The translations under genes were made by a program, and so were the position numbers. A stretch of DNA of 64,000 bases from a virus (Duplodnaviria; Caudoviricetes), in the IMG/VR virus record IMGVR_UViG_3300027887_000012, positions 397-64,396 of that record, one strand, 5' to 3'. Below the pieces are notes generated by a model, which was not told where the DNA came from, did no database searches, and was given only the letters and a program-made list of their open reading frames with translations. This document shows, piece by piece, positions 26,516 through 48,601 of this stretch. Each line of letters starts with the position of its first letter. Positions within the stretch are counted from its first letter, which is position 1.

Positions 26516-26792
26516 CGGGTTTGTTGAAGATTTACCGCCCGCAGATAAAGAGATCGACAGTGCCGAATATTGGCAGGATATGCCAGAGTTTGTGCAGGAG
26601 AACAAGGAAGGATACAAATCTTTTATTGTTCACTTTGAAACCAAAGAGGCATGGGAACAATTCCAGAGAACAAAAAGATTGGAGTTTAAAGGAACAATCA
26701 CTGATAAAACAAAATATTGTTGGCAACCAGAACACGAAATCCAGAATCTTGCAGAATGGGTTTACGCGTGTGAGGATAAGGAAAACCCTTAA
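26499..26792 (+). CDS. small acidic partner upstream of GT-A glycosyltransferase
   Basis: ATG 26499 after AGGTGA; WQDMPEFVQE...FIVHF...ITDKTK..W.P pattern. Confidence 0.65.
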   Translation: MKCTLDGFVEDLPPADKEIDSAEYWQDMPEFVQENKEGYKSFIVHFETKEAWEQFQRTKRLEFKGTITDKTKYCWQPEHEIQNLAEWVYACEDKENP

Positions 26793-26809
26793 CCCGCCCC
26801 AGATATCCG

Positions 26810-27685: not shown

Positions 27686-27686
27686 C

Positions 27687-31129: not shown

Positions 31130-31166
31130 ACAAATATTAATATACTTTAACGTAGTATAATCATCT

Positions 31167-31275
31167 GGGGCAAGCGTTAATACAGTAAAACATCTTCAAG
31201 AAAGAATCAACGAAACGCGCGATAGGTCGGTAGAATCTCTTGAAGAAGAAGTGGGTTAAAATCCCACCTGCCTCG
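31167..31275 (+). ncRNA. tRNA-like RNA lacking a normal anticodon loop
   Basis: Acceptor GGGGCA/TGCCTC, D stem GTT/AAC, T arm GTGGG-TTAAAAT-CCCAC, extended TCTTCAAGA/TCTTGAAGA stem around a long insert. Confidence 0.5.
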
Positions 31276-31280
31276 GATTT

Positions 31281-31373
31281 GTCGGTGAAGTATCTGTTGG
31301 TTCGATACGCGGAGCCTGTAATGTGTAAACACAGGTAACTCCGAGGTCGCATGTTCAATTCATGCCTCCGACT
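31281..31373 (+). tRNA. tRNA-Thr(UGU) with 17-nt canonical BHB intron (31321-31337)
   Basis: Cloverleaf GTCGGTG/CTCCGAC, GTAT/ATAC, CGGAG/CTCCG, GCATG-TTCAATT-CATGC; CCTG/CAGG central helix with two 3-nt bulges. Confidence 0.75.
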
Positions 31374-31393
31374 TGGCAGTTTAAACCCAGATA

Positions 31394-31463
31394 AAAAACG
31401 GTAACGATTCGGCGTAATAACTGAATCGGGTGCGTGGGTGCCGTGTGTTCCCGAAACCGTTTC
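31394..31463 (+). ncRNA. structured three-way-junction RNA candidate between tRNAs
   Basis: aaacggt/accgttt closing stem, gattcgg/ctgaatc hairpin, ggg.../...ccc hairpin. Confidence 0.4.
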
Positions 31464-31474
31464 TGCACCTTTTT

Positions 31475-31606: not shown

Positions 31607-32122
31607 TTGAAGAAGGTAAAAAGGGTTGAAAAGAAGGCGGTCGGTCGCATTTCAAAATACGAACCGAAAATACATGATAATCTTGCAAAATGGTTAGCGC
31701 GCGATGGATACAATAACGAACAGATTGCCGCGCGATTTGAAATTAATCCTTCTACCCTTCAGCGATGGATAAAAGAGTATCCTAATTTGAAAGAGTGTTT
31801 AAGGAAGGGTAAAGAAGAAGTCAGATATGAAGTGGAAGACACATTGATAAAACGCGCGATGGGATACGATTATTCAAAAGAAGAAATCGAAGTGCATGAT
31901 GACGGGTTCCAGAAGAAGAAGATTACCAGTATGCATGTGGCAGGAGATGTAAACGCAATTATCTTCTACCTGCGAACACAATGGAAAGAGAAATATGGTG
32001 ATCAACTGGTTGACCTGACAAAACAATTCGGTGAGGCAGCCGCGATGACTGCGAAACTGGAAGAACTTGCAATCCTTGAAAAACAGGCGCGTGACTTGAA
32101 TGTTGGGACCACCTCTGGGTAA
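31607..32122 (+). CDS. terS: terminase small subunit
   Basis: GRISKYEP, HTH (GYNNEQIAARFEINPSTLQRW), EDTLIKRAMGY, AIIFYLR; upstream of terL. Confidence 0.85.
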   Translation: MKKVKRVEKKAVGRISKYEPKIHDNLAKWLARDGYNNEQIAARFEINPSTLQRWIKEYPNLKECLRKGKEEVRYEVEDTLIKRAMGYDYSKEEIEVHDDGFQKKKITSMHVAGDVNAIIFYLRTQWKEKYGDQLVDLTKQFGEAAAMTAKLEELAILEKQARDLNVGTTSG

Positions 32123-33326
32123 GGCGTTAATCTCATATGTAGATTCAACCGCGCGTATGAATCTATGGGAAGGCAGTGTATCATCGGGAAAAACAATTAC
32201 GGTAGATTATCGATGGGAACGATTCGTAAGAGAATATCCTGATCCTTCAGCGAACTTCTTATTGGTAGGTAAGACAGAACGCACACTTAAACGCAACGTG
32301 ATTGACCCATTAATCGAGATGTTCGGGCCCGCGGTTATCAATACAACAGGCATGGTAGGTCGCCGGGAAATCAAAATCTGGGGTAAGAGGTGTTATCTCG
32401 TAGGCGCGAACGATGCAAAGGCGGAAAGTAAAATACGTGGGTTGACTCTTGCAGGTGCATATTGCGATGAAATGACCTTATACCCAGAAGATTTCTTCCA
32501 GATGTTAATCACGCGTTTAAGAGAACCGGGCGCGAAACTGTTTGGTACAACGAACCCAGATAATCCTAATCATTGGTTGAAGGTCAACTATATCGATAAG
32601 AAGAATCCTGATACCAAAGTATTCAAACTGACCATTGACGATAACCCATATCTTGATCAGGCATACGTCAAACATATCAAATCAACGTTTACAGGACTCT
32701 ATTACCGCAGATATATTCTTGGTGAATGGTGTTTGGCTGAAGGTGCAATCTATGATATGTTTGATGAAAAGGTGCATGTAGTGAGTAACGCACCGTTCCC
32801 ACTTGATTCAAGAACGAAATGGTATGTCGGCATCGACTATGGAACGAACAACCCCACATCATTTCTTATGATTGGCATTAATAATGGGATTGCATATTGT
32901 GTAAAGGAATACTATTTTGACTCGTTAAAGGCGAAACGACAGAAAACAGATGAAGAATATAGTCAGGATTTAAAAACATTTATAGGAAGTCAAAAGATTT
33001 ATCAAATCATTATCGACCCCAGTGCCGCGTCATTTAAATTACTTCTTAAAAGACAAGGATATTTTGTTAGAGATGCCGATCATGAGGTTATCAATGGCAT
33101 ACGCACTGTGGGAACTTTATTGGGTACAAGAAAGTATTATATAAATCATGCGTGTAATAATCACATATCAGAATTCAGTGGATATGTGTGGGATGAAAAA
33201 AGTGTTGAACGTGGTGAAGATAAACCCAAAAAGGAAAATGATCACACGTTGGATGCATGTAGATATGTCCTGCACACCGTTCTTGGGAGCGGTCACGGAA
33301 TGAAGGTGATTAGGAGTATAACATGA
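32100..33326 (+). CDS. terL: terminase large subunit (PBSX-like)
   Basis: EGSVSSGKT Walker A, AYCDEMT Walker B, TTNPDNPNHW, IDYGTNNP, NDHTLDACRY nuclease motifs. Confidence 0.95.
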   Translation: MLGPPLGKALISYVDSTARMNLWEGSVSSGKTITVDYRWERFVREYPDPSANFLLVGKTERTLKRNVIDPLIEMFGPAVINTTGMVGRREIKIWGKRCYLVGANDAKAESKIRGLTLAGAYCDEMTLYPEDFFQMLITRLREPGAKLFGTTNPDNPNHWLKVNYIDKKNPDTKVFKLTIDDNPYLDQAYVKHIKSTFTGLYYRRYILGEWCLAEGAIYDMFDEKVHVVSNAPFPLDSRTKWYVGIDYGTNNPTSFLMIGINNGIAYCVKEYYFDSLKAKRQKTDEEYSQDLKTFIGSQKIYQIIIDPSAASFKLLLKRQGYFVRDADHEVINGIRTVGTLLGTRKYYINHACNNHISEFSGYVWDEKSVERGEDKPKKENDHTLDACRYVLHTVLGSGHGMKVIRSIT

Positions 33327-33409: not shown

Positions 33410-33853
33410 GATTACTTGGTGATTTGGCAACCATCTGTTTTATCCTTGCGACGATCCTATGTGCAATCGTGATCGCGGTTCTCTATTACGGTGCAATCAT
33501 ATACGTGATCCTCTGGTTACTGCATCATTTCGGAGTGATTTAAATGAAAGGAATGTATCCAAGTGTTGTAAGAACTTTATTTCTTGCATTACTACTGATC
33601 ATAATAACCATCATAATAATGGCAGGACTGTTGTATTGGGTGTTGATGTATCTATGAACAAATATCAACAGGCACTTGACGCGATCATCCCCAAATATGT
33701 TAAAATGTTGCAACTCTTAAAAGACATGGAATGGTCAGGACTGCATACCGACTATGAAGATTCTTGGGCGGTCATGACGCGCGCGTGCCCGGTATGTATG
33801 AATGATAAAAGAGATGGGCATAAACCCACATGCAGATTAAAGGAGTTGATTAC

Positions 33854-34900
33854 ATGATCGTACCATTCATGCGCCCACGATTCTGGGGCAATGATATCGA
33901 TGTGGTGCAGGATATCATGACCGAAGGCAGGAACATATCATCGGGACCCGAACGCGATAAGTTTGAAATGATGTTTGAAGATTACATCCATTGCGATCAC
34001 GCACTCGCGGTATGCAACGGAACTGTTGCCCTTGAAATGATTTGGGAAACACTGATACGCGACAAGAAACTACATAAAGGTGATTATGTAATCTGCCCAT
34101 CGTTTACGTTCGTGGCAGTGGCAAATGCGATTGTCAATGCAGGACTCAAACCGTTCTTTGTTGATGTAAAAAGTCATGGATATAATATGGAGATACCGCA
34201 GAACATTACTCTCAAAGGTAAACTTGGGGCAGTCTGCGCGGTTCACACTTATGGAAAACCATGCGATTTAAGCGAGATTGTGAACTATTGTGACGATCAC
34301 GACCTCATCTTGGTTGAAGACTGCGCAGAGGCATGTGGTGCCGATTACAACGGGAAAAAAGTAGGTTGTTTCGGTCACGCATCCGCGTTTTCATTCAATG
34401 CAACAAAGAACCTGACAACGGGAGAAGGCGGTATGGCATGTTTCAATTACGATACAGGAACACCGCAGGCAATCAGAGAACACGGTGACTTATATCATAC
34501 TCGCAATGCGTTAGTGGTTGGGCATAACTATCGGTTATGTAATATCTTATGCGCGCTTGGGTTATCGCAACTTGAATCTCTTGATGTAAGGAACGCACTG
34601 CGCAGGATCAAGGCACAAAAGTATATGGACAACTTCTATAACAAGAAAGTTGCACCCGGGCACGTTTATCAATTGTTCCCGATTGTGGTGAACGATCGCG
34701 ATCGTATCCTCAAACATCTATGGGATAATGGGATTGAGGCAAAGAAGTATTTTGACCCACCAATTCATCATCAGACCGCGCACAGAACAGAGAAATACCT
34801 GCCAAATACCAATTACGTGGCAGAACATGTCATCTGTTTGCCGTTCGATGAACACATCACTGATGACGAAATCAAATGGGTGTGCGAATGCCTGAAATGA
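33854..34900 (+). CDS. DegT/DnrJ/EryC1/StrS sugar aminotransferase (LegC/PseC-like)
   Basis: AVCNGTVAL, PSFTFVA, VEDCAEA, SFNATKNLTTGEGG (PLP Lys). Confidence 0.92.
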   Translation: MIVPFMRPRFWGNDIDVVQDIMTEGRNISSGPERDKFEMMFEDYIHCDHALAVCNGTVALEMIWETLIRDKKLHKGDYVICPSFTFVAVANAIVNAGLKPFFVDVKSHGYNMEIPQNITLKGKLGAVCAVHTYGKPCDLSEIVNYCDDHDLILVEDCAEACGADYNGKKVGCFGHASAFSFNATKNLTTGEGGMACFNYDTGTPQAIREHGDLYHTRNALVVGHNYRLCNILCALGLSQLESLDVRNALRRIKAQKYMDNFYNKKVAPGHVYQLFPIVVNDRDRILKHLWDNGIEAKKYFDPPIHHQTAHRTEKYLPNTNYVAEHVICLPFDEHITDDEIKWVCECLK

Positions 34901-35286
34901 ACGATAAAGGTGAATGTGATTATATATTTATAATCATGATGGTTGCAGTATTCGGAATATTCCTTACAATAATGGTGGGAGGTTCCATACCGATTGATCC
35001 TTATACAATTCAGATCAAAAGTCTTAACGATGGTTCACAAATCAGCGGGCATTTCACACTCGGCTCTGGATATATTAAACAAGACCCAGTGTTTATTGTC
35101 TATGAACGATTGCAAAACGAGGGGTATGTCTTAAAGACACTTCCCGCAGACGATACGATAATTTATGAAGATAACCCATCGATTCCTTATATTCGTGTAT
35201 CGGGGTGCGCGTTTAAACTGGAATATGAAATTCATGTGCCATCCGAGTCAATCATTCAACAATATGCACTGGACGGGAAGTTATAA
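34897..35286 (+). CDS. membrane-anchored hypothetical protein
   Basis: N-terminal TM; GHFTLGSG motif. Confidence 0.6.
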   Translation: MNDKGECDYIFIIMMVAVFGIFLTIMVGGSIPIDPYTIQIKSLNDGSQISGHFTLGSGYIKQDPVFIVYERLQNEGYVLKTLPADDTIIYEDNPSIPYIRVSGCAFKLEYEIHVPSESIIQQYALDGKL

Positions 35287-36014
35287 TGCCCGAAATGAGC
35301 GATTTCTTTCAACAGTGTATTATAGGCGATTGTGTTGAATCTCTTGCGGTATTCCCAAACGAATACGCGCATCAAATCATTACAGTACCCCCTTCAGGAG
35401 ATAGTTGGTCGTATCAGGGATATGATGTAACTATGGGTGAGAAATCAGAATACGATTTCCCACTTCTGGTAAAAGAAATGTATCGTGTATTAGTCAACGG
35501 TGGGGTATTATGTTGGAACGTAGGTGAATCGTGGCATACCGAACCAGATAAAACGAAGTATGAAAACAACGCGCCTGCACGACAATTACTTCAGTTCAAA
35601 AAAGAGGGGTTTTTCTGCCACGCCACAATCGTTGTGAATAAACGCGTGCGCACTGACCCAAATTACCCAGAGGGGTTTGAATATGTGTTCTGCATGTCAA
35701 AAGGAACACCGCGCGTATTCAATCGACAAAATACATCTAAAATCTGGTCGGGACCCAGTAGGATTGAAGAAGATTTAATGTATTCGATTGATAATCATCA
35801 CACGCACGTATCCGCAATGCATCAATCACCAACGCGCATATGGTTGATCAAGGATTTAATGTTGACCTACACAAACGAGAACGATATTGTTATTGACCCG
35901 TTCTTGGGGAGTGGTACTACTTTGCAGGTCGCGCGTGCATTAAAGAGGAACGCGATAGGGATTGAGAAGAATGAAAACTATGCAGGACTTTATCAAATGG
36001 AGATAGATGTATGA
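35286..36014 (+). CDS. N4/N6 DNA methyltransferase-like protein with degenerate catalytic motif
   Basis: IIGDC, IITVPPS in place of (D/S)PPY, VIDPFLGSGTT, AIGIE. Confidence 0.75.
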   Translation: MPEMSDFFQQCIIGDCVESLAVFPNEYAHQIITVPPSGDSWSYQGYDVTMGEKSEYDFPLLVKEMYRVLVNGGVLCWNVGESWHTEPDKTKYENNAPARQLLQFKKEGFFCHATIVVNKRVRTDPNYPEGFEYVFCMSKGTPRVFNRQNTSKIWSGPSRIEEDLMYSIDNHHTHVSAMHQSPTRIWLIKDLMLTYTNENDIVIDPFLGSGTTLQVARALKRNAIGIEKNENYAGLYQMEIDV

Positions 36015-36682
36015 CTTACATAATTGCAGATGCGTGCGTCAACTGGAGAAACCTACAAGAAGCTGATGCACTGATTGAAGGATGCGCGGAGGCAGGTGTT
36101 AACGCTGTTAAGTTTCAGGCGTTCTTACCAGAACGGACTATGCCAAAGGAACTTATTGCAATCACTCTGAATCAAGAAAAAATTGCATATCTCTATTATC
36201 GTTGTCTGCATCACGGTGTAGATTTCCTCTGCACACCTATGTATCCAGAGGCGGTTGATATGATTGCACCTTACGTTAAACTTTGGAAAGTAAGGTTCAA
36301 AGATCATGACAACCTTGATATACTACAAAAGATATACGCTCTCAATCAAAACATCTTAATATCCACTGATAAAGTTGGCACACATCCCAACGCGTTCTAT
36401 CTTTTTTGTGTTCCCGAATACCCGCCAAAGGCAATTCCTGATTTGAGTTGTTTTACTGAATTCGATGGGTATTCATGTCACATCCCGATAGTTAATCATG
36501 TGGTGTTAGCGAACAAACTGCACAACTTCAAATATATCGAAGTACACGCGATGTTGGACTGGTACGATTACGAACCACTTGACCAAAAAGTATCGTTCAC
36601 GATACGCGATTTGGAACAACTGGTCGATCGCATACAGGCACATGACGGAGGACTTCTCAACGATGATAAAAATTGGGTATGA
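36011..36682 (+). CDS. neuB: nonulosonate synthase (NeuB/PseI/LegI family), no SAF domain
   Basis: AGVNAVKFQ, DFLCTP, GYSCH, IEVH...DQKVSF. Confidence 0.8.
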   Translation: MTYIIADACVNWRNLQEADALIEGCAEAGVNAVKFQAFLPERTMPKELIAITLNQEKIAYLYYRCLHHGVDFLCTPMYPEAVDMIAPYVKLWKVRFKDHDNLDILQKIYALNQNILISTDKVGTHPNAFYLFCVPEYPPKAIPDLSCFTEFDGYSCHIPIVNHVVLANKLHNFKYIEVHAMLDWYDYEPLDQKVSFTIRDLEQLVDRIQAHDGGLLNDDKNWV

Positions 36683-37187
36683 GGCGATCAGGTGAAATGG
36701 ATGAAAAAGAGGAGTGTAAAGAAAAGGTCTTCCTTGACCTGATAGAAATCGGACAAATCTATCAAGATATGGGTGACCCAAACGCGCAGGCAGTCCTTAT
36801 CTTTGGTGGTCGCGCATATTGTATTGATATCAACCTATTAACAAATCGTTTACTCAAATACGATACGGAAACCCTTGAAGTAACCGAAATGCGGAGGTAT
36901 TAATGGCAGAATACTGTAATTATTGTGTTGAAGATGAAATGCGCACGCCGATTGAGGAAAGACCCGGTGTTTGGGAAGTGGTCCCGTATTTCTATTGCCA
37001 GCTTGAAGAAGATTTTAACCTGCAATGCCCATATCCTGCAAGAGTATGTGGGTATAAAGATCAAAGAGAAGAATTCACCAATTCTATCATGAAAATCGCA
37101 AAAGACGCATTGGACGAGTGAATCCGACGCAACCTTTATATCCATTGCGATAATAAAGAGTATTTAAAGACATTTTATAGGTGACGA

Positions 37188-38036
37188 ATGGCGAGTAAAA
37201 TATCTGATAAACAACGAAATGCACGCAGAAATATTGACAAGAAACATTTTGATGATAAAAAGTGGCGAGATACACATCCGCCGCGCGTTCGTGACAACGT
37301 TTCTTATTCTGCCGAGTTGGATGAACGCAGAAATCCTCTTGATATATCCTGTAATAACGCACTAATCACCAGTGATTTTCATTTACCCTTTGTCGATTGG
37401 GAACTATTCAAAAACATGGTGACTGTTGGTAAACAGTATGGTATCGACTCTCTTTTTATTTCTGGTGATATGTGGGATTGCGACAACTATACAAAGTTCA
37501 CGCGATTAACCCCAATGGAGGCATTTGAAGAAGAAGTCGAATCGGTCAGATTCCACTTAAAAATTCTCATGCAGGAGTTCAAGGACATTTATATCTGCCG
37601 AGGCAATCACGAAAAGAGATGGATTGATATGAACGCTGGCAGGATGGGTATGAAAGAACTGTTTAAACTCGCAATACCCGGTAACTATTCTGAAGATTAT
37701 TTTAACGATCATGTGCATATCACGATGGACGATCATATGCATTTAAATCAAGGAGATAATTGTTGGTTATTGTGTCACCCAAAGAACTTCAGGATCATTA
37801 ACCTGTCAGTAGTGCGTGATCTTGCGGCGAAATATCATTGCAACGTAATAGGCGCACACGGTCATCAAATGTGTCAAGGTTGGGATAAATCAGGATGGTA
37901 CCGCATCTGTGATGGTGGAGGACTGTTCGATAAAAACGCGTTGGAATACCTGCGTGATACCAATTGTTATCCTGAAACAAGAAGTGGGTTTTATACACTG
38001 ATTGATAACAGAATACTGCCCTATGAGGGTAAGTAA
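37188..38036 (+). CDS. calcineurin-like metallophosphoesterase
   Basis: SDFHLP, GDMWD, GNHE, AHGH. Confidence 0.88.
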   Translation: MASKISDKQRNARRNIDKKHFDDKKWRDTHPPRVRDNVSYSAELDERRNPLDISCNNALITSDFHLPFVDWELFKNMVTVGKQYGIDSLFISGDMWDCDNYTKFTRLTPMEAFEEEVESVRFHLKILMQEFKDIYICRGNHEKRWIDMNAGRMGMKELFKLAIPGNYSEDYFNDHVHITMDDHMHLNQGDNCWLLCHPKNFRIINLSVVRDLAAKYHCNVIGAHGHQMCQGWDKSGWYRICDGGGLFDKNALEYLRDTNCYPETRSGFYTLIDNRILPYEGK

Positions 38037-38111
38037 CTCTCTTTTAAATAAATCTTTAAATAGTATCACATAGTAATTTATAAATACTATGATTGATGTT
38101 GTCAAACGCAG

Positions 38112-38198
38112 GCGCGGTAGTTGTGCATACAGGCGGCGATATTTTAACTGCCTTGCATGGTGGATTGGATGTTACGATCATTCAAGTATGCGCGCGCG
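38112..38198 (+). ncRNA. structured RNA candidate
   Basis: gtgcatac/gtatgcgc closing stem, aggcgg/ctgcct hairpin, second imperfect hairpin; TTTATAAAT at ~38077. Confidence 0.35.
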
Positions 38199-38210
38199 TT
38201 ACGGTGAACA

Positions 38211-38516
38211 ATGAAATGGAATCACATTATCATTGAAGGATATTGCGCCCGCCTCTGGAAGTATCGTTCAAAAAATTCAAAATGGGTATATCGATATGTG
38301 CCCGATACAGAATCGTTTAAGACGGTAAAAGAACCAAACCCGCATTACGACCCGAATGTAAAAAAACCTCAACGACCAAAGTTTTGTAAGAAACGTATCT
38401 GTATCAATTGCATTAAATGTAAATACCTTGCGATTTCCAGTGTTGAGGATGAACTAAAAAGACGGTTCAATAAAATGTATCGTGAATATTGTGGTGAAAC
38501 GGAGGATGAAGATTGA
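38211..38516 (+). CDS. hypothetical protein
   Basis: ORF track. Confidence 0.55.
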   Translation: MKWNHIIIEGYCARLWKYRSKNSKWVYRYVPDTESFKTVKEPNPHYDPNVKKPQRPKFCKKRICINCIKCKYLAISSVEDELKRRFNKMYREYCGETEDED

Positions 38517-39334
38517 AAACATGTTTGGTAACAGGAGGGGCAGGAAGTCTTGGCAAAATCTTATGTCAAAAACTACTCCTACTTGGATATAAGGTAAGAT
38601 GCATGGATATCAGCGAATCTGCACTCGCAACTATAAGTTGTTCCGATAAATCCAGATTCACTGCGATATATGGTGATATCCGCGACTATACGCGCGTGAA
38701 CTTTGCGATGACAGGGTGTGATTATGTAATCCACACTGCCGCAATGAAAAACCTGAATGTCACTGAAAAGAACATCCCCGAAATCAATAAGACCAACATC
38801 ACAGGAACAGAAAATGTGATGGAGTCTGCGATTCAACAGAAAGTCAAGTCTGCGGTCATGATTGGCACAGATAAGGCAGTCGATTCAACCAGTGCGTATG
38901 GTGTATCAAAGTCTGCGGCTGAATGGTTGTGGACGCATGGTGGTAGGATATCTGATTACACCAAGTTCTTTATTGTGAGGTCAGGTAACTTCTGGATAAG
39001 TGCGGGCAACGTGTTTGAAGTCTGGGATAAACTCTATGCGCAAGGCGAACCGCTCCCGCTGACCGATTCGCGCATGATGCGATACTTCATTAAAACGGAG
39101 GATGTAGCTGATCTTGTCATTAACTCTTTATCGTTTGGCAAGACGGGGGATATCATCGTTCCCAAGATGCAGGAATATAACATGAAGGAATTACTTGACA
39201 AAATGTATCCGAACGCAGAGATATCGATTACAGGATTACGTCCCGGAGAATGTTTGAGTCACAATCTCGTAAACCCAGATGAAACATTAATAAGTGATTA
39301 CAACTCTTATTCGATTTATAGAAAAGGTGTATAA
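38513..39334 (+). CDS. UDP-GlcNAc 4,6-dehydratase (PseB/LegB/CapD-like)
   Basis: TGGAGSLG, GDIRD, HTAAMK, GTDKAVD...YGVSK, VRSGN, MMRYF, GLRPGE. Confidence 0.9.
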   Translation: MKTCLVTGGAGSLGKILCQKLLLLGYKVRCMDISESALATISCSDKSRFTAIYGDIRDYTRVNFAMTGCDYVIHTAAMKNLNVTEKNIPEINKTNITGTENVMESAIQQKVKSAVMIGTDKAVDSTSAYGVSKSAAEWLWTHGGRISDYTKFFIVRSGNFWISAGNVFEVWDKLYAQGEPLPLTDSRMMRYFIKTEDVADLVINSLSFGKTGDIIVPKMQEYNMKELLDKMYPNAEISITGLRPGECLSHNLVNPDETLISDYNSYSIYRKGV

Positions 39335-39336
39335 GA

Positions 39337-39954
39337 ATGGTTGGTACAGAAACATCAGGAAATTATGGTCATGCGGGCAGACCCGGAGAAGTCGGAGGCA
39401 GTGCGCCGGGTGGTGCCGCACCAAACCCACACCAAAACGTTGACGGGTTGGGAGAGGATTCTTATGGCGAATCAAACTATCGCGGGATAAAATTGATATC
39501 TTATGATAATATTGGTGATAAAGACAAAGCGTTTCAAAATGCGCATGATATAAAAAACGCGTTAGATAAAGCCCCTCAAAAAGATTACGAAGGATTAAAA
39601 GAACTTTACGTAACTGGTGGGGGGAGTTGGTTAGGTTCATCCTGTTATTTCCCAGAACATGATAGTCTGCTCTTAATGGATGGGTGGTTATCAAAAACAT
39701 CAGATGAAAGAGAGCGATCGTTACTTCACGAAATCGGGCATCGTGCGCAGTTTGTGACACGCAAACAGGACTTTGTTGATTTTCGCACTCATGGACTTAA
39801 AAAATACTTTTATGATGTTATTGACTCAAAATATTCTGATAATTATAAACCATCACAACACGCAGGGGAAACATTTGCGCAATCTTACGCATTATATCTT
39901 TGTAATATAAAACAACCAGAAGAATTAAATCAATTTTGGAGGGATAGGTTATGA
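39337..39954 (+). CDS. N-tagged zincin metallopeptidase effector
   Basis: MVGTETSGNYGHAGRPGEVGGS tag; LLHEIGH plus GETFAQSY. Confidence 0.75.
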   Translation: MVGTETSGNYGHAGRPGEVGGSAPGGAAPNPHQNVDGLGEDSYGESNYRGIKLISYDNIGDKDKAFQNAHDIKNALDKAPQKDYEGLKELYVTGGGSWLGSSCYFPEHDSLLLMDGWLSKTSDERERSLLHEIGHRAQFVTRKQDFVDFRTHGLKKYFYDVIDSKYSDNYKPSQHAGETFAQSYALYLCNIKQPEELNQFWRDRL

Positions 39955-40088
39955 AATTTGATAGTGTTCCCATAGAAGAATTCCCAAAAGAGCTGCGAAA
40001 AAAACTTATTGATAAAGTAATGGGTAAAAAAACAGTTATAGACTATGCGGTATCAAAGCCGATAGATAATAGACTGGTGAAAGAATGA
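39951..40088 (+). CDS. 45-aa partner with C-terminal PIDNRLV tag
   Basis: Not in ORF track; ATGA overlap; MKFDSVPIEEFPKELRKKLIDKVMGKKTVIDYAVSKPIDNRLVKE. Confidence 0.7.
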   Translation: MKFDSVPIEEFPKELRKKLIDKVMGKKTVIDYAVSKPIDNRLVKE

Positions 40089-40924
40089 AGGCGAAAGTTG
40101 AAAAGACCACAAAGAAAGAACCGAAAGAACCAAAAGATTCAAAAAAGGATATCCCGATGATAGATATTACTGATGAACACGATATTTACCGTGGAGAAGT
40201 CGAAACGCCGCGTGTATTGTGTATCATACCCGCGCGTGCAGGTAGTAAAGGCGTTCCCGACAAAAACATCAAACCTCTTTGGGGCAAACCACTTGTCTGG
40301 CACAGTGTGGAAGCTGCGAAAAACTGCGGGTATCCGTTGCAAAGAATTGTGGTATCAACAGAGTCACAACAGTATGCAGACATTGTGGAAGGATGGTGCG
40401 GTAAAGGATTGGTGCCGTTCTTACGCCCATCAGAGCTGGCGCACGATACAACCCCAACCTATCCAGTTATCATTCATACACTGGACACACTCAAAGAACG
40501 GTTCGGTGAAACCTATGATGTTGTCCTATTACTTGAACCAACCTCGCCACTGCGAACAGGACAACAGATCAATGAGGCATTGACCGCGTTGTTCCGGTCA
40601 AAGTATCGATCGATGGTATCTGTCTTCAAATCAGAACAATGTCATCCCGTTCTTGCGTTTAAGAAGGGCAGAGATGACCAGTTGCAACCATATGATGGTG
40701 CAGAATACCCCGCACACCCGCGCAGGCAGGCATTAAGCCCTGTCTATTTCATGGACGGGTCACTCTATGCATCATTCGTTGATACCTATCGACAAAAACA
40801 GAGTTTTGATCATGAGGACACTCTTGCATATGTCATGGAGGAATGGCAATCGTTTGAAGTCGATCACATCTGGGATTTCTATGTGATAGAAGGTATCCTG
40901 AAATGGAGGTCGGTGCCCGGATGA
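40085..40924 (+). CDS. neuA: acylneuraminate cytidylyltransferase (CMP-nonulosonate synthetase)
   Basis: IIPARAGSKGVPDKNIK, VVSTES, RPSELA.D, LEPTSPLR, DGSLY, SFEVD. Confidence 0.92.
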   Translation: MKAKVEKTTKKEPKEPKDSKKDIPMIDITDEHDIYRGEVETPRVLCIIPARAGSKGVPDKNIKPLWGKPLVWHSVEAAKNCGYPLQRIVVSTESQQYADIVEGWCGKGLVPFLRPSELAHDTTPTYPVIIHTLDTLKERFGETYDVVLLLEPTSPLRTGQQINEALTALFRSKYRSMVSVFKSEQCHPVLAFKKGRDDQLQPYDGAEYPAHPRRQALSPVYFMDGSLYASFVDTYRQKQSFDHEDTLAYVMEEWQSFEVDHIWDFYVIEGILKWRSVPG

Positions 40925-41145
40925 TACTTTACACGTTAACCGACTGCCCGAACTGCGATAACGTCAAAAGAATGTTGCACGCCGCAGGATATGAGTTTGA
41001 GGAGAAAGACATGTCCTCACCAGAATCGATTACTGAAATGCGGTTCAACGGGTGTTTTGAAATGAACGCTCCCGTGTTGCAGATTGAAGATAAATTCTAC
41101 AACTACGATCAACTCAAAGATGGTAAGATTTCAGAGGCGATTTAA
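40921..41145 (+). CDS. glutaredoxin/NrdH-like redoxin
   Basis: YTLTDCPNC...APVLQI; resembles methanogen NrdH-like proteins (from memory). Confidence 0.8.
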   Translation: MILYTLTDCPNCDNVKRMLHAAGYEFEEKDMSSPESITEMRFNGCFEMNAPVLQIEDKFYNYDQLKDGKISEAI

Positions 41146-41431
41146 AATGTGTGATAACTGTAAAGATAAATGTTCAAATTATCTCCCAACTGGGAAAAAG
41201 AGTTGTTATAAGAACAAATGTCATACGTGCGAATGCAGATGTTGCCCTGATAACTACGATTGCGAAACGCGCATTGCGAAATGTTGTTACTGTCAACACA
41301 CACCACAAAGGACTACATGGACATATACCTATCCCCCCACACCGTATTATTCAATCACATCAAATCAGTCAAACACACTATGAGGTGAGGTTACGAGTAA
41401 ATTTGTAAGTTATCGGGACGCACAAAAAATC

Positions 41432-42658
41432 ATGCCGGGTGGCAATGGACTTCTCTCAAAACGACCAGAGTTAAAGAGTGCGAACTATCCACAGTATGCC
41501 GATCGCGCGCATGGGTGCGAGATTGTTGCACAGAACAAAAAGTATCTTGACTTCCACCTGATGGGTATCGGGTGTTGCACTCTTGGATACTCGGATGAAG
41601 ATGTTGATGATGCAGTCAGAGAATGTATCCGTGACGGCAACATGACCTCTTTAAACTGTTATGAAGAATACGAACTGGCGGAACTCCTCTTAAAGACCAA
41701 TCCTGCAATGCACATGGTCAGGTTCAGTCGATTGGGTTGTGATGCACTATCACAGGCGATCAGAGTCGCGCGCGCGCATACAGGTAAATCTAAAATCCTA
41801 CATTGGGGATACCACGGGTGGCACGACTGGTATATGGCGGGTTCGTGTGAGTTTGACGCATCATTATATATGGGACCCAACGGGCAACCAAATGCAGGTA
41901 TCCCAAAATGCCTGAAGAAAAAGATTGGGCAGTTTGAACTTGATGCAGACCTGTCAAACGTTGCCGCGGTGATTCTTGAACCCGCACTGTTCACCACAGA
42001 TTTCTTGAATGAGGCGTGCCAAAAAACATATGATGCAGATGTGCCGTTGATCTATGACGAAATCACATCTGGGTTCAGGACACATCTTGGTGGCACGTAT
42101 CTTGACATAACGCGCAACTGGGACCCGGATATCGTGGTCTATGGGAAGGCGATGGGTAATGGGTATCCTATCTGCGCGATCGTTGGGAACGAACATGTTA
42201 TGAGTGCATATAATGACACGTTCGTATCGTCAACCTTCAACACAGAACGCACAGGATTTTGTGCCGCGATTGCCACTATTGAGAAGATGCAAAAGAATCG
42301 TGTGCAGGACACATTGGTTCGTAACGGAGGAGCTGTAAAGAAACTCTGGAAAGAAGCTGCGAAGGAATGCGGACTTAAACTTGAAATAACCGGCATTGAC
42401 CCGCTTGCGACCTTTGAATTCATTGAGGACGAACGATTTGATTATATTGATAAAGACGTATATGCAACTCTTTATCAACAAGAAATGGTGAAAAAAGGAT
42501 TTCTTGCAGGTAGTCAATATTACGCATCAGTCGCACACGACTTTGAGAAATCGGTTAAGTTTGAACTTGCAGTGCATGAAGTGTTCCACGACATTACCGA
42601 AAAAAACATGTATCCTGACAACGCACACATAATAAAACGCGGGGTCAAACACACATGA
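41432..42658 (+). CDS. class III aminotransferase (GSA-aminomutase-like)
   Basis: RAHGC...YLDF, VRFS..G, LIYDEITSGFR, DIVVYGKAMGNG, SSTF. Confidence 0.9.
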   Translation: MPGGNGLLSKRPELKSANYPQYADRAHGCEIVAQNKKYLDFHLMGIGCCTLGYSDEDVDDAVRECIRDGNMTSLNCYEEYELAELLLKTNPAMHMVRFSRLGCDALSQAIRVARAHTGKSKILHWGYHGWHDWYMAGSCEFDASLYMGPNGQPNAGIPKCLKKKIGQFELDADLSNVAAVILEPALFTTDFLNEACQKTYDADVPLIYDEITSGFRTHLGGTYLDITRNWDPDIVVYGKAMGNGYPICAIVGNEHVMSAYNDTFVSSTFNTERTGFCAAIATIEKMQKNRVQDTLVRNGGAVKKLWKEAAKECGLKLEITGIDPLATFEFIEDERFDYIDKDVYATLYQQEMVKKGFLAGSQYYASVAHDFEKSVKFELAVHEVFHDITEKNMYPDNAHIIKRGVKHT

Positions 42659-43278
42659 AAATCTTGGTAACAGGTGGGTCAGGGTTAATTGGTACTGCAA
42701 TTCGTCATCATTTAGTACCGAACACCATTATCAATTATGATCTCTATTTTGACTATGATGATTATATTGGTTGTAGTGCGCGCGTTGATGCGCGTATCCC
42801 ATTACACAAATATATGTATCCTGATCTTGATGTATTCATCGACTGCGCGCGATATGGCAAACCATCAGAACAGTTCATAACATGGAACACGGTTATCAAT
42901 CACTTTAAACAACAGGGTAAAGGCAAAATGATCCTGTTTTCATCAATCTATGGTCACAAGGTACCCGATTTCTCAATCTATCAAGATACAGAAATTGAAG
43001 AAACACCGATTGAATACGCGATCTGGAAGGCAGGCACAGAACACGCAACACGATTCTTGGCGCAGAAACTTAAACCTTATTACATTCAAGTTAATTGCAT
43101 TGCACCCGGTGGTGTTCATGATAAACAATCACTTGCGTTCCAACAACTTTATAAGGAAAGTGGTGGTGTATCGATGATCACAACAAAGAATATATTACCT
43201 GTTATTGATATGTTGTTACACAAAGACAACGCGATCAACGGGCAGGTAATAACGATCGATAAAGGATGGTCGTTATGA
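42655..43278 (+). CDS. short-chain dehydrogenase/reductase (PtmA-like)
   Basis: TGGSGLIG, FSSIYG, YAIWK, VNCIAPGG, GQVITIDKG. Confidence 0.85.
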   Translation: MKILVTGGSGLIGTAIRHHLVPNTIINYDLYFDYDDYIGCSARVDARIPLHKYMYPDLDVFIDCARYGKPSEQFITWNTVINHFKQQGKGKMILFSSIYGHKVPDFSIYQDTEIEETPIEYAIWKAGTEHATRFLAQKLKPYYIQVNCIAPGGVHDKQSLAFQQLYKESGGVSMITTKNILPVIDMLLHKDNAINGQVITIDKGWSL

Positions 43279-43974
43279 TTGATATGATATCAGACACACC
43301 ATATAAATGCCCGAAATGTAATCTGGTAGGTGTAGTAATGAAACGCGAACCACGAATACTGCATATGAAATGTGGTCGATGCGGTGCAACGTGGCAATGT
43401 AAAGAGGTGACTGGGAATTGAGTAACGATCAACCGTTCTTATGTGAAATCTGCGGGAAAATAGGTCGTGTAATGTGTGAACGACCGCAGATTGGTGGTGG
43501 TGTGACGTATGAAATGCGATGCGAATGTGGGAACGAATGGGGAGTCAACCGGTGGGTTCATGACAGGACATGACTATGACAACAACGGATAAATACGAAC
43601 TGTTTGAAATGCAGGACTTTGGGAAAGGCAGACTCATCATGGTTTCTCCCGGGTTTGATACTGTGAAAACCTATTATCTGCACCTGCGTAAAGACTCACC
43701 AGAGATGAAACTGCAAATCTTACGAACAAAAAAAGAAGTCGTGGATATGAGTGATTGGGAATGAGGAAAGAGTGGGATATGTTTGAGGGAATGTTTGAGT
43801 TTTTTTCGTTTGGATATATATTATCAACATTTACTACTACATTCGCATTTATTTATATGATTATTGAACCATCGATTAAAACTTTTACAATCATGATTTT
43901 ACTTGCTATTTTTGGTGCAATCTGTTGTTTGGCATGGGATGATCTCAATCGTTTCAGGATATGGTGTTTTGTGA

Positions 43975-44862
43975 ATGGTTAAAATACTTGTACCTATTGG
44001 TTGTCGAAGCGATGAGGGATTATCTGCACCTGTTATCAAACGGATGAAATCGGCAGGGTTTGAGGTAAAGACAATTCGACTTGATGCACAACAGTTCATA
44101 CCATCGTATCAGGTTGTTGACTTGATGTGCAGAGGACAGAATCATGTTGGCACATTTGCGTGGAAACCAGACCTTGTTTTCATTACAGGTGATCGTGTAG
44201 AAATGTGCGCGGCTGCGTGCGCCGCATTTCATAACAAGATCAAGATCGCGCATTTCTACGGAGGAGTGGTGAACATCCCTATAACCACCTTCGATGATAT
44301 TGATCGTCACTGCATCACACTCTGGTCAGACATTCAATTTGTTGAAAGTGATGAATGCGCGGATGTTGTTGCAGATTTACGAAAAAACTTTCATTTGATG
44401 AATTCGAGGCACAATATTCACGTTGTGGGTATTTCACACATGGATGATTTGGAGGTTGACGAATCACTGGTGCCGCATTCCTGTTTTCCAGAATGTCACA
44501 AACAGGAATATGATCTGGTTCTGATGAATGGTGAAACAATACTGCTGACCGCAGGATGGATATGGGATCATAAACGTCACGAAATTCAGATAGGATCAAA
44601 TCCAGATAAAAATATTGGCAGACTTGTGGGTGTTGATACCTATTATGAGAATCTACCCAGACCGCAATTTCTCGGACTCTTAAAGAACTGCACGCGATTC
44701 ATCACCAATTCGTCCTGCGCGATCTACGAAGCTCCCTATTTCCTTAAACCCGAACAGATCGTAATGATAGGTGATCGTAACAAGAATCGAACAAAGGGAT
44801 CCTTTGAAATCGGTGCCAGTGATAAAATTGTAAAGATATTGAGGGAAAAATATGGAACATGA
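43975..44862 (+). CDS. neuC: UDP-N-acetylglucosamine 2-epimerase (hydrolysing NeuC/LegG type)
   Basis: GCRSD, TGDRVE, AHFYGG, DDIDRHCIT, VGISHMD, ITNSS...EAP, IGDRN. Confidence 0.85.
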   Translation: MVKILVPIGCRSDEGLSAPVIKRMKSAGFEVKTIRLDAQQFIPSYQVVDLMCRGQNHVGTFAWKPDLVFITGDRVEMCAAACAAFHNKIKIAHFYGGVVNIPITTFDDIDRHCITLWSDIQFVESDECADVVADLRKNFHLMNSRHNIHVVGISHMDDLEVDESLVPHSCFPECHKQEYDLVLMNGETILLTAGWIWDHKRHEIQIGSNPDKNIGRLVGVDTYYENLPRPQFLGLLKNCTRFITNSSCAIYEAPYFLKPEQIVMIGDRNKNRTKGSFEIGASDKIVKILREKYGT

Positions 44863-45292
44863 CTTTGTATTCAAACAATTAATCGTTCATCCGGGCGGGT
44901 ATCACGTAAAATATACTTGCGTGAATCCGGGATGCGATATCTCATTCGAATTGCCAATGGATGACCCTGATGCAATAGACCCCTCTGTTAAACGGAATTA
45001 CAGGTCTATCAAACAGATGATAAAAGGGAATTATCCTGATTGCCCGTATACCTGCGATACCGATCCATTCAAACAGGCGCGTGAAGATAATATTAAGGAT
45101 TCCACATGAAACATAATTGGGTATTCACCGAAGCAAAACATGAGGATGGATGTACTGAACTGATTTTCAGGTGTTCAAATACAGGATGCACAAAATTCGC
45201 GTCATTCGCAACAGGCTCCCGGTATATCAGCCGAACCCTAAAATTCGGATTGGAAAAACTCAATAAGACCGAAACAAAATGGGATGTTTGCC

Positions 45293-45670
45293 ATGTGGAC
45301 GAAGCCAAAAATAATCCATAATCGCCCTACTAAATGGAACTGGATGGTATGCAGACCAGAATATCTCACTTTAGGAAACCATGTGGATATCGGGGCATTC
45401 TGTTATCTTCAGGCACAACAGGGCATCACTATTGAGGATGACGTTCAAATCGGTTCGCATTGTTCTATCTATACAGTATCCACGATCGATGGTAAACAAG
45501 GAAAAGTATTGATTAAGAAAAACGCGCGTATAGGCACACACTCAACAGTCATGCCCGGGATAACTGTTGGGATAAACAGTGTGGTTGGTGCGCACTCTTT
45601 TGTAACACGCGACATTCCTGATAACGAGATGTGGTTCGGTGTCCCAGTGCATTTTCACAAAATTATTTAA
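45293..45670 (+). CDS. hexapeptide-repeat acyltransferase
   Basis: LGNHVDIG...IEDDVQIG...IKKNARIG...VMPGITVGINSVVGAHSFVTRD...WFGVP. Confidence 0.85.
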   Translation: MWTKPKIIHNRPTKWNWMVCRPEYLTLGNHVDIGAFCYLQAQQGITIEDDVQIGSHCSIYTVSTIDGKQGKVLIKKNARIGTHSTVMPGITVGINSVVGAHSFVTRDIPDNEMWFGVPVHFHKII

Positions 45671-45708
45671 TGATTGTAGTCGTTTATATTGATATAAAGG
45701 GGTGTAAT

Positions 45709-46125
45709 ATGGATGCGAACACTGCGATAGTAATTGCAACAATCTATTATATTGTTGTCATGTATTTGATGTTTCTGGAATTGGTAAAGCCGGTTCCTCA
45801 AACGGGCACCGTTAAGGGTACTGTATCCTACGGTGGCGATGTTGAGAATGTAACGATGACTCTTGAAAAGGACGGGGTTGTTGTTGCGAGTGTTGTCACT
45901 GATGCAACCGGGGCATATGCGTTTGTTGACGCACTTGCCATTGGAGATTATCTCCTGAAGGCACATAAGGATGTTGCGGAAGGATTCCTTACCGCTGAAA
46001 CGTATATCTCCATCATTGGTGGAGAGAACATCGAAGCCGACTTACCACTGGTAAAAACATCAAACCTGCGTGCGCACCCAAAACCCTCTTTTAACACCAA
46101 ATCTCTTGGTATTTACAAATCGTGA
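45709..46125 (+). CDS. membrane-anchored carboxypeptidase-regulatory-like (Ig-like) protein
   Basis: N-terminal TM; GTVKGTV...TDATGAYAF...GDYLL. Confidence 0.65.
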   Translation: MDANTAIVIATIYYIVVMYLMFLELVKPVPQTGTVKGTVSYGGDVENVTMTLEKDGVVVASVVTDATGAYAFVDALAIGDYLLKAHKDVAEGFLTAETYISIIGGENIEADLPLVKTSNLRAHPKPSFNTKSLGIYKS

Positions 46126-46148: not shown

Positions 46149-46204
46149 GAAACTTATATTACCTCATAGGTCAATTAGTAATTGTAATACTGTCAACAGT
46201 ATTA
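46149..46204 (+). promoter_or_regulatory. early-type promoter with overlapping palindrome
   Basis: aaacTTATAT at 46154, TTGTAATAC at 46182-46190; TAATACTG-TCAA-CAGTATTA at 46185-46204. Confidence 0.75.
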
Positions 46205-47023: not shown

Positions 47024-48601
47024 GTGAGTAAAGTAACTGTGGTTTTAAATGCATTAAATAATGGTGCGGAGATTGACGGTGCGATGATTGCCGCACTCGT
47101 TCAATCAAACAGAGATAATCGCAAACGCATGACCGACATGCATGGGCGATATATCGGGTCAAAAGAATCGATACCTGTGTTCAGTCGCGAATTCCTTGAC
47201 CAATCAAAAATAAACTCAAAACTCAATAATGATTTCTTCAGTGATATCGTAGATACCAAAGTCGGGTATCTTCTTGGTATTCCTGTAAGTTATACCTATC
47301 GTGAACCAGAACCCGACGAATCAACGGGTCAACCAAATCCTATTGAGGCACAAAACAAAAAGATCATTGATGAGAAACTTCAGGACTTCGCGCGCAGAGA
47401 GAATCTTTCAGAGGTCGATGCAGAAACCGCAAAGTTCGCCGCAATATGTGGGTTCGGTGCGCGACTGTGTTTTGTCGGCGAGGATGGCGATGAACATGTG
47501 CAGAACGTGTATCCGTGGGAGTGCATTTTCCTTGTCGATGACAATGACATTCAACATCCAGATTACGCATTGCGATATTGGGAAGAGGAGGTCGCAATCA
47601 GTGGGATAGATAACACTCAAACGATTTACAAGTGCGAGTTTTATGATGAGAAGAATATCTATTACTTCATACAGGTAATCGATACTTCCAATACTAACCC
47701 ATCACCAACCGCCTCACAAATGGTGACGTTTACATTAGACCCCAACAAACCACCTCAACCGCATATGTTCGCAACCTGCCCATTAATAGGATTCCCGAAC
47801 AATGATGAAATGATTGGTGACTGCGATAAAGTGTTGTCATTAATTGACGCATACGATCGCACACTCTCTGATCTATCTTCAGAACTGGAACAGATGCGGC
47901 TGGCATACATGGCAATCTATGGTGTAAGACCAGATGACGATTTCCTTGCACAAATCAAAAAGACTGGTACAATAGGGTTTGACGACCCGGAAGATCGTGT
48001 TGAATTTATCCAGAAGAATCTTAACGACACAGTAATTGAAAATCACTTGAATAGGTTGTGTGAAGATATCTATTATTTCAGTGGGTCGCCGAATTTCAGA
48101 GATCAGGCGTTCGCAGGTAATATCTCTGGGGTTGCACTGAAGTTTAAACTATTCAAACTGGAATCAAAATGTATATCAGCGGAACGTGAATTCCAAGTTG
48201 CACTGCATCAGATGTTTGAAATCGTTGGTACCAAATGGCAGATTGAAGCTGTTGACTTTGAACCAGATGATGTGGAGTATAAGTTTAAGAGAAACTTCCC
48301 ATTGAACCTTGCAGATGAGGCGTCCACAACCTCAATGTTGGCAGGACTTGTATCTGAAGAAACCAGACTCAAACAATTATCGTTCGTTCCAGACCCTAAA
48401 AAGGAGTTGGAATTAATGAAGGCAGAACAACAGGAACAGATTAACCTTCAACAATTCGCAAATGCGAATGCCCAGAACCCACAGGAACAACCTGCACAAC
48501 CCAACGCACAGGATCAAGGACAAAATCAAGTACAACCTCAACCGGGAGATTATAATTCTCCCGTGGGGTATCGACAGATGGATTATCAGGGGGTAAAGTA
48601 A
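47024..48601 (+). CDS. portal protein (SPP1 gp6-like)
   Basis: NDFFSDIVDTKVGYLLGIP, NNDEMIGD...LIDAYD, GNISGVALKFK, FKRNFP. Confidence 0.93.
   Translation: MSKVTVVLNALNNGAEIDGAMIAALVQSNRDNRKRMTDMHGRYIGSKESIPVFSREFLDQSKINSKLNNDFFSDIVDTKVGYLLGIPVSYTYREPEPDESTGQPNPIEAQNKKIIDEKLQDFARRENLSEVDAETAKFAAICGFGARLCFVGEDGDEHVQNVYPWECIFLVDDNDIQHPDYALRYWEEEVAISGIDNTQTIYKCEFYDEKNIYYFIQVIDTSNTNPSPTASQMVTFTLDPNKPPQPHMFATCPLIGFPNNDEMIGDCDKVLSLIDAYDRTLSDLSSELEQMRLAYMAIYGVRPDDDFLAQIKKTGTIGFDDPEDRVEFIQKNLNDTVIENHLNRLCEDIYYFSGSPNFRDQAFAGNISGVALKFKLFKLESKCISAEREFQVALHQMFEIVGTKWQIEAVDFEPDDVEYKFKRNFPLNLADEASTTSMLAGLVSEETRLKQLSFVPDPKKELELMKAEQQEQINLQQFANANAQNPQEQPAQPNAQDQGQNQVQPQPGDYNSPVGYRQMDYQGVK

Follow-up and report, generated by a model that had tools for sequence, protein, structure and literature searches.

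A conserved viral gene cassette predicted to build a legionaminic/pseudaminic-class sugar in a family of probably archaeal tailed viruses

The DNA analysed here (the window) is a stretch of 64,000 nucleotides from a tailed virus and comprises all but the first 396 bases of the 64,396-base IMG/VR record IMGVR_UViG_3300027887_000012, which is linear and has a CheckV completeness estimate of 79%. A tape-measure and tail module stands at the start of the window, the small and large terminases (TerS and TerL), an SPP1-type portal and a MuF protein stand in the middle, and a scaffold gene and a cut, 3'-open reading frame (ORF) stand at the end; the virus is siphovirus-like and tailed, its contig broken within the head gene region. 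Nearly every gene is on the + strand, and GC content is even along the window (0.40-0.45). Between TerL and the portal lies a cassette of sugar genes, and we find there, by Pfam and NCBIfam matches, all eight enzymes that an earlier reading of the DNA made without database searches (the sequence-only reading) had proposed for a pathway to a cytidine monophosphate (CMP)-linked nonulosonic acid, each on the + strand and at or a few codons from its predicted position. The same reading placed the genes between terminase and portal and saw them interleaved with unrelated ORFs, and both descriptions hold (Table 1). The other interleaved genes encode a glutaredoxin, a tagged protein with a HEIGH motif and many small Cys-rich proteins; start and stop codons overlap by 4 nt at several junctions, including methylase/NeuB and class III aminotransferase/short-chain dehydrogenase/reductase (SDR), and the last gene of the cassette encodes a membrane-anchored beta-sandwich protein (45631-46125).

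Family scans with Pfam or NCBIfam covered the window ORFs of at least 200 amino acids (aa), except 3203-3814 and 27675-28295, together with ten unknown ORFs from relatives' cassettes. NCBIfam equivalog cut-offs served as the yardstick for orthologue-level calls, with scores below them taken at the family level only, and by this yardstick the earlier statement that six of the genes match canonical legionaminic/pseudaminic (Leg/Pse) steps, given there as established, was too strong: no equivalog threshold is reached, the dehydratase is closest to the inverting PseB/CapE/FnlA class, and NeuC and the acetyltransferase are of Leg type. The best NCBIfam model for the dehydratase is PseB (173 bits, cut-off 408), with only 51 bits against LegB; against solved structures it scores 141 bits with FlaA1/PseB, 125 with CapE, 124 with an FnlA-like enzyme and 81-90 with PglF, which is of the retaining type, and it aligns over its full length to H. 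pylori PseB, the TDK and YxxxK motifs included. The DegT protein scores 193 bits against PseC and 190 against the LegC family (cut-off 420), each below the cut-off of its model; its translation shows the pyridoxal phosphate (PLP) lysine context, and that of the class III aminotransferase shows a PLP-lysine motif. NeuA, for which PseF is the best NCBIfam model (123 bits), carries a 44-aa Lys/Glu-rich N-terminal extension, matches the CMP-N-acetylneuraminic acid synthetase 6IFD over residues 44-275 (125 bits) and aligns end to end with 6IFD and 1EYR. The SDR gives 125 bits with PRK09186 and 80 bits with PtmA (C-terminal half only), and TGxxGxxG and YxxxK motifs are present in its translation. 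For NeuC the TIGR03568 score is 101 bits against a cut-off of 236, the best PDB match is LegG (5XVS), and GDRxE, H93 (the HxxGG histidine), DDxxR, NSS and RN..R are invariant in nine viral copies. The acetyltransferase scores 72 bits against NeuD_NnaD (cut-off 161), over profile positions 115-201. No match at E<=1 to PseH (TIGR03585) or PseG (TIGR03590) is found in the record, and judged by these profile matches the gene set appears to be a hybrid, with a PseB-like dehydratase, LegG/NeuD-type later steps, and PseG and PseH not found.

The NeuB-family synthase had been described by the sequence-only reading as shortened and divergent in its motifs. It is indeed short: the PF03102 match is limited to profile positions 1-120, the first half of the model, and the NCBIfam score is 53 against a cut-off of 400. 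Degeneracy is not borne out, since KFQ, T75, K93, D98, S118, Y137, S155-x-H157 and E177-x-H179 (the latter two metal-binding) are invariant in 40 short NeuB proteins. An AlphaFold2 (AF2) model with a predicted local distance difference test score (pLDDT) of 94 and eight strands predicts, with confidence, an eight-stranded barrel, and the top Foldseek matches are the SAF-less NeuB of Leptospira (6NCS), PseI and N. meningitidis NeuB; the protein has the TIM barrel and the two metal-binding His but no SAF domain. The Leptospira borgpetersenii enzyme 6NCS is the best match both by sequence (87 bits) and by structure (TM-score 0.81, query-normalised) and likewise has no C-terminal SAF domain, whereas the viral forms are 40-90 residues shorter and make up a family of their own, mainly on virus-sized contigs. 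SAF-less enzymes account for approximately 10% of KEGG NeuB sequences and come from environmental bacteria (PMC8208679); in 401 sampled archaeal genomes only long NeuB frames occur, of 280-622 aa and mostly 337-400 aa. The short-NeuB family, of 200-260 aa, has 3,965 matches at E<=1e-10, many on contigs of 40-135 kb, and the window NeuB thus belongs to a distinct and widespread SAF-less family and is not a damaged gene. The closest relative, P0004, is 82% identical to the window NeuB, and a scan of viral contigs with P0004 gave no match.

We scanned IMG/VR with the NeuB protein and then with the 40-sequence NeuB alignment, and find at least 87 contigs with NeuB relatives; the IMG/VR loci compared carry L numbers, and G406-G409 are fetched records of relatives. 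In nine of these (L002, L059-L066), which come from different metagenomes, the cassette occupies the same spot, and the nine share TerS, a TerL that is 48-61% identical and, where the locus extends that far, a portal that is 44-58% identical; TerS homologues stand ahead of TerL in L002, L059 and L062-L065. The order in the relatives is TerL, NeuB, dehydratase, NeuA, class III aminotransferase, SDR, NeuC, usually the acetyltransferase, and portal, in a cassette that is compact in most of them and swollen by insertions in the window and L065. One relative, G406, is a complete 44.6-kb genome with direct terminal repeats (DTR), and another, G407, is classed as a provirus and has a tyrosine integrase at its start; L066 is provirus IMGVR_UViG_3300035455_000118. 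In G409 (the record of L060, 39,962 nt) the acetyltransferase gene is matched at both ends, which suggests a circularly closed assembly. Mean pairwise identity among the relatives is 48-61% for cassette proteins and 57% for TerL, with no significant congruence between TerL and cassette-protein pairwise distances (r 0.13-0.31, p 0.1-0.3). The cassette marks out a family of temperate, siphovirus-like tailed viruses, which are probably archaeal. The interleaved metallophosphoesterase is probably outside the pathway; homologues approximately 50% identical to it sit outside the cassette in L002, L061 and L066.

Table 1. Positions of the cassette genes, their borders and the promoter-like elements in the window
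Feature	Position	Strand	Match or basis
Small terminase-like helix-turn-helix (HTH) protein; opens the string of packaging and sugar genes	31607..32122	+	HTH_23/HTH_28
Large terminase; left cassette border	32100..33326	+	Terminase_3/6N
DegT/PseC/LegC-type sugar aminotransferase	33830 or 33854..34900	+	PF01041 2.6e-82
N6/N4 DNA methyltransferase; non-pathway, interleaved	35286..36014	+	PF01555
SAF-less minimal NeuB-family synthase, 223 aa	36011..36682	+	PF03102 1.9e-15
Metallophosphoesterase; interleaved	37188..38036	+	PF00149, weak
UDP-GlcNAc 4,6-dehydratase, PseB/CapE/FnlA (Polysacc_synt_2) class	38513..39334	+	PF02719 4e-62
CMP-nonulosonate synthetase (NeuA)	40085..40924	+	PF02348 2.5e-20
HemL-like class III aminotransferase	41432..42658	+	PF00202 6e-28
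Shortened PtmA/PRK09186-like SDR	42655..43278	+	NCBIfam PRK09186, PtmA
NeuC/LegG-type hydrolysing UDP-sugar 2-epimerase, 295 aa	43975..44862	+	PF02350 6e-26
Minimal left-handed beta-helix N-acetyltransferase, NeuD/PglD C-terminal part	45284 or 45293..45670	+	Hexapep; NeuD_NnaD
TATA-box/initiator promoter motif; ends the cassette, starts the portal operon	46155..46190	+	TATA-N20-27-GTAATAC match
SPP1-type portal; right cassette border	47024..48601	+	PF05133 1.4e-82
Promoter-like elements, ~37 nt	10198-10233, 11322-11359, 12487-12522, 21353-21388, 22388-22425, 24155-24190, 46155-46190, 61846-61883	+	motif scan

The aminotransferases sort differently across these viruses. The class III enzyme is present in nine of nine relatives and the SDR, 27-60% identical, likewise in every member, whereas among the fetched loci DegT is found only in the window and L003, and five relatives' records, one of them DTR-complete, have no match to PF01041. 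DegT had been counted among the six canonical enzymes of the pathway; it is accessory, and the conserved core has the class III aminotransferase and the SDR instead. The acetyltransferase is present in four of five relatives' records and missing from the complete genome G406. DegT homologues 70-75% identical occur on contigs of 13,551 and 3,698 nt, and because these sizes equal those of contigs carrying close NeuB relatives, DegT-bearing variants of the cassette probably exist. L003 itself is an unrelated, DTR-complete 55-kb virus without the window's portal type and has a homologous cassette in the order Maf-like gene, DegT, NeuB, dehydratase, NeuA, NeuC, acetyltransferase and an 847-aa PEGA-domain protein. 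Five unrelated viral loci (L074, L082, L088, L107 and L116) combine dehydratase, NeuB and class III aminotransferase, with DegT absent. At 8161-16791 of L074, a contig with a DnaB helicase, a PseB-like gene, a SAF-less NeuB, a GNAT, a cytidylyltransferase and a class III aminotransferase are followed by QueC, an arrangement that looks like a Pse-like cassette without PseC. Cellular relatives of the class III aminotransferase, of approximately 436 aa and 41-46% identity, are widespread, and in two cellular proteins of 680-693 aa (P0296 and P0345, one from a Planctomycetes metagenome-assembled genome, or MAG) it is fused to an SpsF/NeuA-like cytidylyltransferase; the window enzyme is 43% identical to the aminotransferase half of P0345. 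The fusion links this aminotransferase subfamily to CMP-sugar pathways. Because the class III, HemL-like enzyme co-occurs with the cassette while DegT is absent, it probably performs the C4 transamination in place of PseC/LegC, in which case the DegT of the window would be an additional or second aminotransferase.

The pattern TATA-N20-27-GTAATAC occurs at eight coding-strand sites, against 0.31 expected by chance, and is absent from the opposite strand. Every site consists of a TATATA box, a spacer of 22-23 nt and then ATTGTAATAC, usually followed by GGAGTG, a ribosome site after the initiator, and a start codon; the TATATA box starts 29-30 nt before the conserved initiator, mostly with a purine-rich stretch upstream, and an oligo-T run precedes the initiator. 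This geometry fits an archaeal TATA box and initiator, and the 22-23 nt spacing is unlike that of sigma-70 promoters. No promoter of this main type lies between 24190 and 46190, and the cassette follows TerS and TerL in that run, the next element being the one that starts the portal operon; the enzymes are therefore probably made together with the packaging proteins, late in infection.

We consider it likely that the cassette is a self-contained, functional pathway to a CMP-linked 5,7-diamino-3,5,7,9-tetradeoxy-nonulosonate of the Leg/Pse class, and that a host transferase, or one that escapes recognition, links this sugar to virion proteins. The starting materials would be host uridine diphosphate N-acetylglucosamine (UDP-GlcNAc), phosphoenolpyruvate (PEP), cytidine triphosphate, acetyl-CoA and glutamate. 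The PseB-like enzyme would carry out the 4,6-dehydration, the class III enzyme, DegT or both the C4 transamination, and the mini NeuD-type enzyme the N-acetylation, after which the NeuC/LegG-type enzyme would release UDP with 2-epimerisation, the SAF-less NeuB would condense the sugar with PEP and NeuA would activate it with CMP; the PtmA-like SDR may have a tailoring role at some step. Because the gene set is hybrid, we name the product only as a Leg/Pse-class 5,7-diamino-tetradeoxy nonulosonate, of either stereochemistry. The UDP-type CMP-legionaminic pathway of Legionella, Acinetobacter and Halorubrum sp. PV6 (PglF/E/D-like enzymes, then LegG, LegI and LegF) has the same logic and the same late enzymes, and its LegG/NeuC-type epimerase, NeuD/PglD-family acetyltransferase, NeuB-family synthase and CMP synthetase all have counterparts in the virus. 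The viral route differs in that the dehydratase is nearer PseB/CapE/FnlA than PglF, the conserved aminotransferase is of class III and not DegT, NeuB has no SAF domain, the acetyltransferase consists of the beta-helix part only and the genes are virus-borne. The CMP-pseudaminic pathway of Helicobacter and Campylobacter (PseB-PseC-PseH-PseG-PseI-PseF) supplies the best models for the dehydratase, DegT and cytidylyltransferase, namely PseB, PseC and PseF, and H. pylori FlaA1/PseB is the closest solved dehydratase, whereas a NeuC-type epimerising hydrolase and a NeuD-type acetyltransferase stand in place of PseG and PseH.

The acceptor and the transferase were approached through the window's structural proteins and unassigned ORFs. 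The earlier description of very Ser/Thr-rich fibres is roughly right, in that Ser and Thr together make up 20-33% of several structural proteins, the median being 12%. A member of this set is a 960-aa protein (52359-55241) with an N-terminal DUF2341 domain followed by approximately 25 copies of a Thr/Lys-rich repeat of about 20 aa (..TKTA.Y.I.R.TQ..); this protein, probably a fibre, could be a glycan acceptor. In L003 the gene directly upstream of the cassette matches PF01973 (1e-25) and the Maf-family model PseD, although its product has no sequence match in PDB, and it indicates that one virus at least combines a cassette of this sort with direct O-glycosylation of proteins, in the manner of the Maf/PseD flagellin transferases of flagellin glycosylation islands. 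At 25544-27685 of the window a TET-associated glycosyltransferase (PF20691, 3.6e-36) comes after the gene for a radical SAM/SPASM enzyme, a pair that probably serves DNA modification, apart from the sugar cassette; this TAGT-like glycosyltransferase (26810-27685) was rejected as the cassette transferase, having no homologue in the fully fetched records G406 and G408. Other ORFs considered as glycosyltransferases and set aside are 30560, a membrane protein with two transmembrane (TM) segments; 34876, a small TM protein; 37188, the metallophosphoesterase outside the cassette in relatives; 38211, a 101-aa Cys-rich protein; 39337, which has a HEIGH metalloprotease motif; and 59185, which has an HD motif.

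Several points weigh against a working pathway that decorates the virions of an archaeal virus. Every enzyme is far under its NCBIfam equivalog cut-off and most are 15-40% shorter than their cellular counterparts; the acetyltransferase has no N-terminal nucleotide-sugar-binding domain, the viral NeuB has no SAF domain, which in the N. meningitidis enzyme supplies Arg314 (PMC8208679), and the AF2 model of NeuC, built from a shallow nine-sequence alignment, reaches a pLDDT of only 64. Short proteins, scores below threshold and interleaved unrelated ORFs are also what would be expected if the genes were functionless, either as decaying morons or as a misassembled fragment of host DNA, and the sequence-only reading had itself named degenerate enzymes and misassembly as its possible undoing. 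We regard this as highly improbable: the same gene order is kept in at least nine independent viral contigs, which rules against a misassembled host fragment, and the invariant catalytic residues of NeuB and NeuC rule against degeneracy; the reading frames are free of stops and frameshifts, GC is even, overlaps of start and stop codons tie pathway genes to viral genes, and the NeuB fold is predicted with confidence. Because the shortening is common to the relatives, it reads as a selected feature and not as decay. A working cassette could nevertheless make another product, if FnlA/B/C-like action gave a 6-deoxy-hexosamine that NeuB extends, with the class III aminotransferase and the SDR adding an amino group elsewhere to give an unusual or triamino nonulosonate. 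The CapE and FnlA scores of the dehydratase nearly equal its PseB score, the SDR and class III aminotransferase belong to the core, DegT and the acetyltransferase being dispensable, and two aminotransferases are present in the window; yet the best solved relative of NeuC is the hydrolysing LegG, and L074 pairs a class III aminotransferase with PseB-, PseH-, PseI- and PseF-like genes and no SDR, which fits a simple replacement of PseC. We therefore find such a product rather improbable, and retain the 5,7-diamino nonulosonate.

The destination of the sugar and the host are less settled. No Maf/MptE-like match is found in the window record, in agreement with the earlier remark that no sialyltransferase or Maf-like transferase could be seen, and Maf (PF01973/DUF115) is found neither there nor in five close relatives, which sets these viruses apart from the Maf systems; the ORF scans, including the ten relatives' ORFs, gave no glycosyltransferase except the TET-associated one, although a transferase could sit in the missing part of the 79%-complete record. 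The late timing that speaks for virion decoration is deduced from gene position only. With no viral transferase conserved in the family, the viral CMP-sugar might instead feed a host glycosyltransferase and alter S-layer, archaellum or pilus glycans, masking a receptor, with superinfection exclusion or a block on re-adsorption to debris as the result. Since one or more members are proviruses with an integrase, expression in a lysogen is possible; the membrane-anchored beta-sandwich protein ends the cassette; and in Halorubrum a host-made legionaminic glycan on the S-layer and on the HRPV-1 spike affects adsorption (PMC6137143). On the other side, the genes lie within a packaging and morphogenesis string, not in a lysogeny or early module, and the cytoplasmic Maf-type protein transferase beside the L003 cassette points to direct protein O-glycosylation. 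Host-surface remodelling stays a serious rival because of the lack of a conserved viral transferase and the temperate lifestyle, if an unlikely one, and glycosylation of virion proteins is favoured because of the late timing, the L003 Maf gene and the Ser/Thr-rich structural proteins. The host is probably an archaeon. The earlier label of archaeal virus is made plausible by the promoter geometry and the archaeal DegT relatives, and falls short of proof given packaging genes like those of Gram-positive phages: the portal shares 39-40% identity with portals of Bacillus and Staphylococcus phages, and TerL shares 40-47% with its counterparts in Bacillus, Corynebacterium and Streptomyces phages or prophages. 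An ordinary bacteriophage with a sugar cassette, for example in an anaerobic Gram-positive host, is thus quite conceivable, though the less expected case; MuF, ADP-ribosyltransferase and S-adenosylmethionine (SAM)-lyase effectors are typical of bacterial phages, most named relatives of the class III aminotransferase come from bacteria, and a search of 401 sampled genomes from the phylum of Methanospirillum did not recover the portal. A genome scan with TerL gave only prophage-like matches approximately 45% identical, in Streptomyces, Clostridia, a Synergistaceae MAG and a Methanospirillum MAG, and no related provirus in the genomes searched, no TerL match sharing more than three genes with the window. 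Apart from the eight coding-strand promoters, with a TATA box about 26 nt ahead of the initiator, a bacterial host is opposed by sigma-70 promoters and hairpin (intrinsic) terminators at chance level over 37 kb, by the absence of any peptidoglycan hydrolase seen among approximately 60 window ORFs in the family scans, and by the DegT relatives, of which all named proteins among the top 120 are archaeal (a Methanolobus MAG, Bathyarchaeia on contigs of up to 1.45 Mb, and Natronorubrum), a 51.9-kb contig binned with Methanolobus, on which MDP2217204.1 lies, carrying both a DegT relative and a short NeuB (P0034).

The one archaeal virus known to have a nonulosonate on its particle is HRPV-1, whose spike protein VP4 bears an N-glycan capped by legionaminic acid made by the host and relevant to adsorption (PMC6137143). 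HRPV-1 encodes no pathway gene, whereas the virus of the window encodes a whole predicted route to the CMP-sugar. We found no paper on a complete virus-encoded nonulosonate pathway in the literature searched; a review of giant-virus glycans makes no mention of nonulosonic sugars, and one review has pseI in the abbreviation key to a table of ways in which phages redirect host metabolism. The window NeuB has no match among 50,697 deposited phage records, the sole match of the window NeuC is a Moritella viscosa contig, and a canonical archaeal NeuB matches the same contig and two uncultured viral records. Virus-borne nonulosonate cassettes are thus recurrent in metagenomes and essentially undescribed; this one stands out by its probably archaeal host, a conserved place between terminase and portal, enzymes of reduced size and a core that includes a class III aminotransferase.

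Surface glycans capped with nonulosonic acids govern how cells, viruses and immune systems recognise one another, and the conserved cassette offers a testable case of viruses producing a sialic-acid-like coat of their own or altering the host's. The full proposition, in which a temperate archaeal tailed-virus family builds a Leg/Pse-class sugar by a miniaturised route, with a class III enzyme replacing DegT, a NeuB without SAF and an unrecognised transferase to virion or S-layer, is put forward tentatively and may well fail in one of its parts; if true, this would be the first nonulosonate glycosylation system encoded by a virus in the Archaea, and C4 amination would have a new enzymatic solution. 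The class III aminotransferase is a candidate non-orthologous replacement of PseC/LegC and may explain unannotated 'HemL-like' genes in cellular nonulosonate clusters, and the naturally minimised enzymes, among them a 200-aa NeuB barrel and a 128-aa acetyltransferase, could be useful for enzymology and chemoenzymatic synthesis.

Five small, mostly Cys-rich ORFs lie among the sugar genes (33459-33857, 34876-35286, 38211-38516, 41084-41383 and 45106-45321) and have homologues in L065/G408, one of them directly upstream of the acetyltransferase in both viruses; they may be accessory zinc-ribbon proteins. A Gly-rich N-terminal tag (GN.GH.GRPG.VGGS) is common to the HEIGH-motif protein (39337-39954) and the HD-motif protein (59185-60507), and a C-terminal PIDNR.V motif closes the latter and ORF 39951-40088. 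A non-coding stretch of approximately 340 nt (31130-31474) that holds T-arm-like fragments precedes a tRNA-Gln(UUG), which is the only Rfam match; the leader of about 300 nt before it has no Rfam match and folds no better than shuffled sequences (z -1.6). In the head-morphogenesis region there are two proteins like ADP-ribosyltransferase exoenzymes and one SAM-lyase-like protein (48809-49645, 60504-61238 and 57668-58414).

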